This document shows, piece after piece, positions 56,499-61,774 of a DNA stretch of 64,000 bases. The notes below the pieces were generated by a model that saw only the letters and a list, made by a program, of their open reading frames with translations, made no database searches and was not told the origin of the DNA. Location: contig FR891275.1 in the NCBI GenBank assembly GCA_000433755.1, forward strand, positions 12,721 through 76,720. The letters run 5' to 3'. A program made the position numbers and the translations under genes. Each line of letters starts with the position of its first letter. Within the stretch, counting starts at the first letter, position 1. The DNA is from Clostridium sp. CAG:465 (GTDB lineage Bacteria; Bacillota; Clostridia; TANB77; CAG-465).

Positions 56499-56731
56499 TC
56501 TAAGTTCACCTTCCTTTCCTTTTTACTTGCATTACACAAGTAGTTTAATTATACTCTAAAATACATAAAAAGTCAATAAAAAATAGGAAATTTATAAATT
56601 AATATAACATAACATTTACATTTGGTTCCTTTATAACAATACCGCACTCACTCAATACTTTATATGTGGTGTTTTTTAAAAAAATAAAGGTAAAAGTTAT
56701 ATTTAAAGATGTTTATATACAATAATTTTTA

Positions 56732-57088
56732 ATGTATAATTTTATTGGTGGTAATATGAAAAGAATAGAAGAGCAAAATGTTATAATAGGAAAAAAACTA
56801 AAAGAATACAGAGAAAATAGAGGATACACGCAAGAAGAAGTTGCAAAAGAAATAGAGGTAAATCCAAAACATTATGGAAGAATAGAAAGAGGAGAGAATT
56901 CTTGCACAGTTTCAAACCTTATAACTCTATGTAATTTACTTGGTATCAGTACAGAAGATATTATGGGGTCTCTTACGTACACAAAACCCGATAACGGAAT
57001 AAGTAATGATTTTCAAAAATTAACCATTGAAGATAAATTATCTGTATCAAATTATATAGAATTTTTAATTTCAAGGTATAAAAATTAA
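56732..57088 (+). CDS. XRE-family HTH transcriptional regulator (probable start at MKRIEEQ, about 56756)
   Basis: HTH region LKEYRENRGYTQEEVAKEIEVNPKHYGRIERGEN. Confidence 0.6.
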   Translation: MYNFIGGNMKRIEEQNVIIGKKLKEYRENRGYTQEEVAKEIEVNPKHYGRIERGENSCTVSNLITLCNLLGISTEDIMGSLTYTKPDNGISNDFQKLTIEDKLSVSNYIEFLISRYKN

Positions 57089-57118
57089 AATTTCTATTAT
57101 TGTGGAGGCTTATATTTA

Positions 57119-57430
57119 ATGTTAATAGATGTAAACCAAACTATATCAGAGAAAAAAAACGAATTTGAAATATTGTATGAAAATAAGAGCATATATACTG
57201 CAACTCTACCTTTTATAAACATAATCGGAAGTTTTAATTTAGAAAATCTTAGAAAAATAAAAGTATATGATAAAAACAGTAATTTAAAATATAAAACAGA
57301 GTATAATTATGTTGATAATCAACTAGAAGAATTTATTCCATTTAAATATTTAATAACCAATTCTCAAAAATTTTATCAACTAAAGTTCATTAATCAAAAT
57401 AATAATGAAAATGATGTGTCAATTTTTTGA
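57119..57430 (+). CDS. hypothetical protein (103 aa)
   Basis: ORF with RBS GGAGG. A 39-aa ORF (57432..57551) follows in another frame. Confidence 0.35.
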   Translation: MLIDVNQTISEKKNEFEILYENKSIYTATLPFINIIGSFNLENLRKIKVYDKNSNLKYKTEYNYVDNQLEEFIPFKYLITNSQKFYQLKFINQNNNENDVSIF

Positions 57431-57610
57431 AATGAAGGAAGTTTGGAATGGTTATTATGTAATTAAATACAAAGATGTATTTATAATTGTTTTTCAATTG
57501 AAGATGGATACATTAGACATATATGTATATATAAAGATGAAATTCAAATAGCTAAATTATTAAAGCCTAATGTAGTAATAGACGGGAAGGACGAATATAG
57601 AATTTATTTA

Positions 57611-60454: not shown

Positions 60455-60463
60455 AATTTCCTC

Positions 60464-61675
60464 CTACTTATTTGCAAGTAAAATATATGTATTTAAAACG
60501 TTATAATAGTTAAATCTACTTGCATTTTTGTCTACATATTTTTCATACTTATCGTCCTGAAATACATAAACCATTTTATCAGGAACAGAATTTACTTTTG
60601 AATCTACAGCAAATTCAATCAAGTTATCGTTTTCATTTTCATCTAAAATTTTTTTCAATTTAGAAACAAAATTTTCTCCCGAAGTGATATACTTTCCTTT
60701 TTTTATATAATAATTATATTTATCTGAATTTGCATGTGGTAAATTTTCCTCCTTATCAATAGTATTACTGCTCTTTATTTGTTCTGTTGTTATGTTAAAA
60801 TACGAATGAATAATCTCTTCAGAATTATTTGTTTCGTTTTTCACAGATTTATTCGATGTAATATCAACATGATACCACTCGTCATCTAAATTTACCATAT
60901 TCCATTCATGTGCCTGATCTTTAATATTTCCTGTGATAACTATATTTTTAATTCCAACTTTATCTAATGCTATCATTAATGTTTTAGATAATCCATCACA
61001 TACAGCTTTATGTGATACTAAGCATCCATATATACTATGACATTCGTCAGGCACCTGGTTTATATCTGTATATTTATAATAAGTAGCAATTTTACATATT
61101 TGGTCATGCAAATATAATTCTGCATCAAATTTATCCATTGTTTTTGCTTCAGAAATAATTGGATTTAATATACTATTTATTTCTGCTATTTTTTTATTTA
61201 ATTCAAGTTCATCTGAAATGTTATAATTAATTTCAATTTCTATCCTTTTTGAACTGACTAAATCAATAGTTGAGACTGTATATTCGTTATTTACGTAAAA
61301 AACCTCAGGATGGTCTAAAAAGAAATTTTCCATTGCTTTTTTTGCATCAGTCATAATATTATTATCATCAATATAATTATATTCTTTTACCTTTGCTTTT
61401 TTATTTAAGTTTTTTACAGCTATTGCTACTGCTTTATATATATTTTTTTGATTTTCATTTAATAAATTATAGTAAAAAGTAGAATTTTCAGGTTGCAGTT
61501 CATTAATCTTAATTTCACTAACATCCTCTGGTATTTCATAATCCCCTGTTACTTTATCATACACATCTTCAGCACTTATCACTATTTGATTTGCAAAGTT
61601 TTTATTTAATAAAATAAAAGCTGTAAACAAAATAAAAAGGAGTGTAACTATAATTGTAAATATTTTTTTAATCAT
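60464..61675 (-). CDS. secreted/membrane-anchored transglutaminase-like (TGc) cysteine protease-fold protein
   Basis: N-terminal signal/TM. Cys-His-Asp triad context KAVCDGLSK ... AHEWNMV ... WYHVD. 403 aa. Confidence 0.8.
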   Translation of the reverse strand: MIKKIFTIIVTLLFILFTAFILLNKNFANQIVISAEDVYDKVTGDYEIPEDVSEIKINELQPENSTFYYNLLNENQKNIYKAVAIAVKNLNKKAKVKEYNYIDDNNIMTDAKKAMENFFLDHPEVFYVNNEYTVSTIDLVSSKRIEIEINYNISDELELNKKIAEINSILNPIISEAKTMDKFDAELYLHDQICKIATYYKYTDINQVPDECHSIYGCLVSHKAVCDGLSKTLMIALDKVGIKNIVITGNIKDQAHEWNMVNLDDEWYHVDITSNKSVKNETNNSEEIIHSYFNITTEQIKSSNTIDKEENLPHANSDKYNYYIKKGKYITSGENFVSKLKKILDENENDNLIEFAVDSKVNSVPDKMVYVFQDDKYEKYVDKNASRFNYYNVLNTYILLANK

Positions 61676-61742
61676 ATCTTCACCTACATTATATATTTTA
61701 ATATATAATTAAAACAAATTCAATAATTTATCAAAATATATA

Positions 61743-61774
61743 ACAAAAAGATGGACTTTTGTCCATCTTTTTGT
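61743..61774 (-). terminator. rho-independent terminator immediately after the rpoC stop
   Basis: Minus-strand hairpin CAAAAAGATGGAC-AAAA-GTCCATCTTTTTG followed by TTATATATTTT. Confidence 0.6.

Follow-up and report, generated by a model that had tools for sequence, protein, structure and literature searches.

Introduction

LapG-type proteases, which are transglutaminase-like cysteine proteases, act on large adhesins that bear a von Willebrand factor A (vWA) domain, and they require calcium. The MoxR-DUF58-vWA-TGc clusters (the Bat operon of Bacteroides and Leptospira, and YeaC-YeaD-YebA of Bacillus) likewise encode vWA and transglutaminase-like proteins together. In this study we analysed a gene pair of this general kind in a stretch of 64,000 nucleotides from Clostridium sp. 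CAG:465 (contig FR891275.1), which is called the window throughout and whose numbering is used for all coordinates given without a locus name. The pair encodes a transglutaminase-fold (TGc) enzyme and a vWA surface protein and lies between rpoC and rpsL, where an earlier note on this DNA had proposed a rare accessory insertion carrying an uncharacterised surface module.

The pair resembles LapG-LapA in that a Cys-His-Asp enzyme is paired with a large calcium-binding vWA surface protein. It differs in being a membrane-anchored pair of the Gram-positive type with no LapD, cyclic di-GMP (c-di-GMP) module, type I secretion or LapG signature, and in that the TGc enzyme also occurs without its vWA partner. 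No genes for a LapD receptor, a LapG-family protease or a type I-secreted adhesin were found at the locus or in the loci of its relatives, and membership of the TGc protein in the LapG family was rejected, the similarity being at the level of the fold only. The comparison with the Bat/MoxR clusters gave weak NCBIfam matches far below the cut-offs (BatA 52.8 bits against a cut-off of 380, BatB 33 bits against a cut-off of 350); neither a MoxR AAA+ ATPase nor a DUF58 gene is present at the locus or in the relatives' loci, and the domain architecture is different, so that this assignment was also rejected. A further likeness is to variable surface-antigen loci (capsule, O-antigen, pilin or S-layer variants), which likewise have conserved flanks, sharp identity breakpoints and many deeply diverged alleles, the synonymous divergence (dS) of the present cassette being about ten times that of its flanks; unlike at capsule and O-antigen loci, what varies here is a cassette of two proteins and not a cluster for glycan synthesis, and the anchors of the cassette are rpoC and rpsL.

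Taken together, the analysis suggested that the rpoC-rpsL interval carries a core but antigen-like surface module, a reading to which we assign a probability of roughly 0.55. It comprises a two-gene operon (unit 1) that is resident throughout the lineage and whose alleles are swapped by recombination, with the vWA protein as one client of a TglA-like enzyme, and an unrelated unit (unit 2) that lies beside it. The clade-wide synteny, the hypervariability of the cassette, the pseudogene and a pseudo-protease domain linked exclusively to TGc are new here, while the component superfamilies were already known.

The TGc-vWA operon at the rpoC-rpsL junction

The interval 56499-61773 extends exactly from the start codon of rpsL (56498, minus strand) to the stop codon of rpoC (61774, minus strand) and holds two independent units, namely unit 1 (61723-57989, minus strand) and unit 2 (56732-57934, plus strand). 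The anchors and the elements of unit 1 are as follows.

61774..63978, minus strand: 3' part of rpoC, running past the window end; conserved left anchor of the cassette, with RNA_pol_Rpb1 domains seen in identical loci
61740..61777, minus strand: rpoC intrinsic terminator, a 17-bp stem followed by a U-run (terminator scan and folding)
61695..61723, minus strand: promoter-like site of the TGc-vWA operon (TTGAAT, 17 nt, TAAAAT; consensus scan)
60464..61675, minus strand: TGc gene, TglA-type transglutaminase-fold enzyme of 403 amino acids (aa) (Transglut_core match)
57989..60454, minus strand: vWA surface protein gene, 821 aa (VWA match)
57949..57985, no strand assigned: terminator hairpin serving both strands, between the convergent vWA and 272-aa genes
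56576-56548, minus strand: rpsL promoter-like site (TTGACT, 17 nt, TATAAT; consensus scan)
56082..56498, minus strand: rpsL, conserved right anchor of the cassette

Unit 1 is a two-gene TGc-vWA operon bracketed by terminators. The hairpin and T-run behind rpoC (61777-61740) have a folding energy of -23.2 kcal/mol with z = -9.4, which bears out the earlier description of rpoC as ending with its own strong terminator, and a hairpin followed by a U-run was seen 3' of rpoC in every clade locus examined. A Shine-Dalgarno sequence (AGGTG) lies between the promoter-like site and the TGc open reading frame (ORF), and the vWA ORF begins 9 nt past the TGc stop with its own Shine-Dalgarno sequence (AGGAGG) ahead. 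At the other end, the hairpin at 57949-57985 is perfect and AT-rich, with folding energies of -15.5 and -16.8 kcal/mol for the two strands and z of about -7.3, and it terminates the vWA ORF and the converging plus-strand genes alike. The L7Ae-family gene usual at this junction is absent, as had been remarked before, since no junction ORF matches any L7Ae family at E <= 0.1.

To place the operon in its lineage, one genome per species was scanned for a full-length TGc orthologue, and this yielded 36 species with identities of 30-68%, all of them uncultured gut Clostridia, sampled from humans, chickens, rabbits, mice and ruminants. The results showed that rpoC (72-98% identical to that of the window) lies upstream of TGc in 33 of the 36 species and rpsL lies downstream in 31, the exceptions being contig ends and one relocation. 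A vWA gene is present at the locus in 25 of the species and absent in 10, and one locus stops at a contig end; where present, it follows TGc on the same strand with a gap of 9-66 bp everywhere. At least 93 blocks of the assembly collection contain the exact vWA protein of the window, and its context is the same in each; homologues at 67, 45, 43 and 39% identity share the gene order rpoB, rpoC, TGc, vWA, (XRE), rpsL, rpsG, fusA, tuf. Even in the relocated case (locus L022), where the pair has moved away from rpoC, the two genes are still together.

Unit 1 is thus a long-term resident of the junction in this clade, whose members are uncultured gut Clostridia of low GC content, and not an acquired island. 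The earlier note had called the interval a 5.3-kb accessory insertion, had considered an insertion at this place to be rare, and had named the presence of the same genes in all close relatives as the outcome that would speak against it. The genes do lie where it placed them; their accessory nature did not hold, as TGc is at the junction in essentially all 36 species and vWA in 25, and the claim of rarity is contradicted by the same comparative data.

Divergence of the cassette alleles

The strength of divergence in the cassette was examined by comparison with a closely similar locus (L005), using dS calculated by the Nei-Gojobori method and nucleotide identity scanned in 150-nt windows. The flanking DNA of the two loci is 96.5-97% identical, and the encoded proteins are 100% identical for fusA and the alg14-like gene, 98% for rnc and the radical-SAM gene, and 97% for the C-terminal part of rpoC, in comparison to 64% for TGc and 67% for vWA. 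The dS was 1.12 for TGc and 0.989 for vWA (values near saturation for this method) in comparison to 0.067 for fusA, 0.093 for rnc, 0.159 for the C-terminal part of rpoC and 0.02-0.16 for the flanking genes overall. Along the DNA, identity remains at 97-99% through rpoC (L005 and L018), drops to 58-80% between about 61900 and 57990, and is back at about 97% in the XRE regulator gene (L005). TGc and vWA were replaced jointly, as a single divergent block. L018 and L110 showed this pattern too, with a third allele.

Among database matches that are 63-100% identical to the window vWA protein, at least 15 allele groups could be distinguished, each with less than 85% identity to the others. The mean pairwise identity among these groups is highest for the vWA domain (79%) and lowest for the TSP3 and beta regions (58%). 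Because the cassette dS is far above that of the flanks, the cassette alleles long predate the genomes in which they now sit. Such a pattern is characteristic of alleles exchanged through recombination in conserved flanks, or of polymorphism maintained over a long time, as at surface-antigen loci. An apparent oddity of a conserved operon junction has thus become a defined and testable object, a cassette for two surface proteins that is core to a widespread uncultured gut lineage and yet hypervariable. Phage adsorption and host antibody usually target loci of this type, so they are useful for strain typing in metagenomes.

The vWA protein and its pseudo-protease domain

The 821-aa product of the gene at 57989-60454 is indeed a vWA protein, as had been supposed, and its order of parts is a short acidic cytoplasmic tail, a transmembrane helix, an Ig/PKD-like domain (for which there is a weak Pfam match after the helix), two thrombospondin type 3 (TSP3) repeats, a beta domain, the vWA domain and a C-terminal pseudo-protease. 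The main domains are encoded as follows.

59855..60079, minus strand: two TSP3-like calcium-binding repeats, aa 126-200, DTDEDGLSDTYE and DTDGDIVNDGTE
58922..59494, minus strand: vWA domain, aa 321-511 (Pfam VWA, E = 2.7e-21)
57992..58921, minus strand: C-terminal streptopain-like (papain-fold) domain, aa 512-821, predicted pseudo-protease

The metal-ion-dependent adhesion site (MIDAS) of the vWA domain is complete (D331-x-S333-x-S335, T410 and D439) and invariant in 35 sequences. With regard to the TSP3 repeats proposed earlier, two DxDxDGxxDxxE motifs are visible, which hardly vary across the family at their Asp, Gly and Glu positions; the Pfam family TSP3_bac (PF18884), which is precomputed for many homologues, was not obtained on the window protein at E <= 0.1. 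The vWA protein and the TGc protein are both predicted to be exposed at the surface, as each has an N-terminal hydrophobic helix with Lys on its N side, and the vWA protein would be a type-II membrane-anchored surface protein.

The last 310 residues of the vWA protein form a domain of the papain fold that is closest to peptidase family C10. Streptopain and interpain (MEROPS C10) and IdeS (C66) are the nearest described proteases, and distant homologues of the vWA protein keep the Cys of GxCxG and the His of GxHA at the positions expected from them. In the window protein, as alignment with these distant homologues showed, the Cys is replaced by Thr and the His by Tyr. The domain further differs from the C10 and C66 proteases in that it sits behind a vWA domain and not a pro-domain, and in that it has no sequence-level family membership: there was no Pfam match on the window domain and no PDB sequence match in the profile search, and a Pfam scan of 19 domain members gave one weak, chance-level BtrH_N match (E = 0.021) in a single member.

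Full-length homologues of the vWA protein reach down to about 38% identity. When the domain profile was searched against 1.84 billion representatives (clusters at 50% identity), 754 proteins were found at E <= 1e-3 and 246 at E <= 1e-10, and nearly all of the 754 carry the domain at the C-terminus of proteins of 750-1000 aa. A sizeable family of vWA proteins with an unannotated streptopain-like C-terminal domain has thereby been identified. The catalytic Cys and His are kept in about 97 of the top 150 family representatives. Among TGc-linked copies, both are lost in 32 of 32, with Thr, Gly, Ser, Asn or Ala at the Cys position and Tyr at the His position, while the homologues at four loci that keep both residues (L012, L014, L099 and L100) have no TGc neighbour and are not near rpoC. 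The loss of the peptidase Cys and His thus coincides exactly with TGc linkage.

As both catalytic residues are lost, no protease activity is expected of the TGc-linked domain, and the window domain is, judging by these residues, a predicted pseudo-protease derived from a widespread, unannotated vWA-peptidase family. The family offers a clean natural experiment, in which the peptidase is dead just where the adjacent gene codes for a TglA-type enzyme. Separately, a distant homologue of the vWA-peptidase family (L013 8001-10265, 28% identity) has Asp and Arg at the Cys and His positions and no TGc neighbour, and would be a second, independent inactivation of the peptidase domain.

The TglA-type enzyme

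The ORF at 60464-61675 was correctly recognised before as transglutaminase-like, its match to Pfam PF01841 (Transglut_core) over residues 180-271 reaching 25.5 bits against a cut-off of 23 (E = 1.7e-5). The catalytic residues are C226 (AVCDG), H256 (AHxWN) and D271 (HVDIT), and this Cys-His-Asp triad is invariant in alignments of 5, 20 and 37 orthologues (37/37, including the 10 species without vWA). The family profile matches PDB 9CRN across nearly its whole length (E = 2e-12). This structure is TglA of S. pyogenes, released in 2024 as a "transglutaminase-like domain-containing protein", and the same fold was found across the N-terminal, core and C-terminal domains of TGc. The two proteins share the positions of the Cys-His-Asp motifs (xVCxG, AHAWN and VDxT) and a conserved N-terminal "DxPExFY" region, although their sequence identity is only 16-17%. 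Unlike TglA, the TGc protein has an N-terminal membrane-helix anchor, a vWA partner and a position after rpoC. Its N-terminus is a hydrophobic helix preceded by Lys-Lys, and the helix is predicted to anchor a body that lies outside the membrane. In general, TGc is a predicted active Cys-His-Asp enzyme of the TglA fold.

A literature search on S. pyogenes TglA and 9CRN returned only the unrelated 3-thiaglutamate TglA peptide and no paper on function, so the match to 9CRN names a fold family and not a mechanism. The cassette gives genomic context to a fold for which a structure exists and no function was found in that search.

An enzyme of this fold next to a vWA protein raises the possibility of a release switch analogous to that of LapG and LapA, in which a calcium-dependent TGc protease would cut the vWA adhesin from its N-terminal anchor and so free it. 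This is a specific version of the model in which the vWA protein is a client of the enzyme, and what speaks for it is the similarity in fold and the analogy with the known action of LapG-type proteases on large vWA-bearing adhesins, together with the calcium-binding TSP3 repeats and single N-terminal anchor of the vWA protein. The fold comparison itself points elsewhere: TglA is by far the best match, with an architecture that is different from LapG and includes extra N- and C-terminal domains, and the matches after it are much weaker (a transglutaminase 13.2, LapG 11.5, PeiW 8.0). The sequence gives a generic Transglut_core match only and none to the LapG family, the locus lacks a LapD-like c-di-GMP receptor and type I secretion genes, and TGc occurs without vWA in 10 species. 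We therefore regard such a switch as distinctly unlikely.

Enzyme and client, or neighbours

The main rival to our preferred reading is that TGc and vWA are mere neighbours, TGc being a TglA-like core envelope or cell-wall enzyme of the Firmicutes beside which an independent, variable vWA adhesin has landed. It is supported by the 10 species in which TGc persists with an intact triad although there is no vWA gene at the locus. It is also favoured by the Lachnospiraceae, in which TglA-like genes (L054 4079-9088 and eight other loci) lie in another housekeeping neighbourhood, in the order prfC, TglA-like gene, asp23/Gls24-like gene, nusB and xseA, with no vWA gene, and by the vWA-protease homologues that stand alone elsewhere. 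The TglA-like family thus behaves as a core gene in a second Clostridia lineage. What mere neighbourhood does not account for is that the vWA protein with the dead protease domain always lies 9-66 bp downstream of TGc on the same strand, that the pair stayed joined on relocation in L022, that both genes were replaced together as one divergent block, and that the loss of Cys and His tracks TGc linkage exactly, both residues being missing from all 32 linked copies and retained at four unlinked loci. On this evidence we judge the neighbours-only explanation to be fairly unlikely.

The reading of a core, antigen-like module with an enzyme and its client has points against it as well. That TGc persists with its triad intact in the 10 species whose locus lacks a vWA gene implies that its primary role is independent of vWA. 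The promoter is putative, being a consensus match only. The cassette dN/dS of about 0.23 indicates purifying selection overall, the dS values near 1 are close to saturation for the Nei-Gojobori method, and the assignment of L005 to the same species rests on about 7.6 kb of flanking DNA only.

With these points taken into account, the module may work as follows. The vWA protein would be an exposed, metal-dependent stalk for ligand binding or adhesion that takes its ligand through the MIDAS, and phage, host antibody or competitors may be driving the stalk to diversify. The TglA-like enzyme would act on envelope proteins or on the cell wall, by cleavage or by isopeptide formation, with the vWA protein as one of its clients, and the dead protease domain would serve as a binding module and not as an enzyme. 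On this reading the TGc and vWA sequences are replaced between strains through recombination in the conserved flanks, which gives many deeply diverged alleles. The relation of enzyme to client, the exposure at the surface and the selective agent are all inferred. The earlier view of the pair as an uncharacterised surface module agrees with these results, in that the genes form a pair predicted to be co-transcribed, whose products are membrane-anchored and extracytoplasmic by prediction, and searches of Pfam, NCBIfam, PADLOC and PHROGs gave no family that describes it.

A bolder version of the enzyme-client model, which is unlikely in our judgement, would join the active TglA-like enzyme and the dead streptopain-like domain in a two-component surface machine, in which the pseudo-protease captures or presents a substrate, or activates the enzyme. 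The cassette would then be a serotype-like determinant (a phage receptor or a target of immunoglobulin A) of an abundant uncultured lineage of gut Clostridia, with at least 15 ancient alleles exchanged through the rpoC and rpsL anchors.

The XRE regulator and the broken 272-aa gene

Unit 2 consists of an XRE repressor and the decaying gene of a 272-aa membrane protein, and it is an unrelated, variable passenger of the junction.

56732..57088, plus strand: XRE-family helix-turn-helix (HTH) regulator, 118 aa, divergent from rpsL and heading the unit of XRE and 272-aa gene
57119..57934, plus strand: pseudogene of the 272-aa protein, with a C-terminal membrane helix and two frameshifts

The presence of an XRE regulator on the plus strand was confirmed by the match to Pfam HTH_3 (E = 2.8e-14). 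That it is dedicated to the vWA-TGc pair, as the earlier note had it, was not supported. The gene converges on the vWA gene, lies 5 kb from the promoter-like site of the pair and heads a unit of its own. The co-occurrence of the three genes, which had been put forward as a check, gave 4 species with both vWA and XRE, 18 with vWA only, 4 with XRE only and 6 with neither, so that XRE shows no association with vWA. The XRE protein is 96% identical in L005, where the cassette proteins are only 64-67% identical.

Behind XRE, the "two or three small proteins" described earlier proved to be fragments of one gene and were rejected as separate proteins. The short ORFs at 57119-57430, 57405-57551 and 57611-57934 encode 103, 48 and 107 aa; the first and the last are in one frame and the intervening 48-aa ORF is in another, and three-frame reading with alignment showed that two 1-nt differences from strain L002 explain the frame shifts. 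The copy in L002 carries separate lesions of its own. The repaired protein carries a membrane helix at its C-terminus. Its intact homologues are 269-304 aa long and reach down to 39% identity, and one cluster of 253 sequences is 93% identical to it. An intact copy at the same site with 93% identity was found in L096, in the order rpsL, XRE, 272-aa gene, vWA. Eight human-gut contigs of the same strain group (L101-L108, about 8740-9530 each) all share the frameshift near codon 103, and most of them also lack the last 80 or so codons of the gene. The gene is thus in ongoing decay at the strain level. No family for the 272-aa protein was found in Pfam, PADLOC or PHROGs; the sole Pfam match, a weak Myb-like one of 19.4 bits, is below the cut-off of 27 and was rejected. 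A distant homologue sits in an unrelated cluster of uncharacterised genes, and the related species L018 has a different gene, of 124 aa, behind XRE. As the cargo behind XRE varies between strains and species, XRE and its cargo form a small variable unit of their own.

These features might suggest that the whole interval is a recently acquired, horizontally transferred accessory island with its own XRE regulator and possibly a role in anti-phage defence. The variable cargo is in its favour, as are the drop in GC content to 19-22% across the plus-strand genes (57000-58000), from 24-29% across the TGc and vWA genes and similar values in the remaining window, and the likeness of XRE to phage repressors (NCBIfam RstR, PHROGs and, in PADLOC, generic HTH models only). 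Against it, TGc or TGc-vWA is found at the junction throughout the clade, to an rpoC divergence reaching 72% identity. No integrase or transposase ORFs or repeat boundaries were found in 56499-61773. XRE and vWA do not co-occur, and an anti-phage defence system was rejected because neither PADLOC nor PHROGs gave a match for TGc, vWA or the 272-aa protein. Accessory behaviour is confined to the small unit of XRE and its cargo. For the TGc-vWA pair an acquired island is contradicted, and for the interval as a whole it is very improbable.

Neighbouring genes and the ribosomal super-operon

Other envelope genes were found in the rpoC-rpsL spacer of relatives, at L025 959-5770, L024 7313-9118, L019 4683-5921 and L034 7074-8327. 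They encode two large proteins with a type-IV-pilin-like N-terminus (1603 and 601 aa), one penicillin-binding-protein-like transpeptidase and one polytopic membrane protein or transporter, and the rpoC-rpsL junction is a recurrent landing site for surface genes. Beside the relocated TGc-vWA pair of L022 lie four tandem paralogues of a 116-120-aa membrane protein (1733-3397), with ParB-like and phosphoadenosine-phosphosulfate-reductase-like genes downstream, as judged by eye from their sequence.

In the window, the genes that come after tuf are acpP, rnc, a radical-SAM gene and those of a split Alg14-like/Alg13-like glycosyltransferase, and not the S10 ribosomal operon (48390-53253), and upstream of rpoB a release-factor gene and a 124-aa gene stand in place of rplJ/rplL (L001 1-1400). 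The ribosomal super-operon has been broken up in this lineage, both ahead of rpoB and behind tuf, and since the usual neighbours of rpoB and tuf have been lost, the junction is not inviolable here. The longest ORF of rpsG (55492-55995, minus strand) has 167 aa, while gene calls in identical loci have 156 aa (L001 14493-14963), and the true start is probably an internal one. Between acpP and rnc, on the opposite strand, there is a 108-aa ORF (51270-51596, plus strand) with an N-terminal hydrophobic segment; it is a gene call without a Pfam family in L001-L003 and L005, and is thus conserved at least within the species group.

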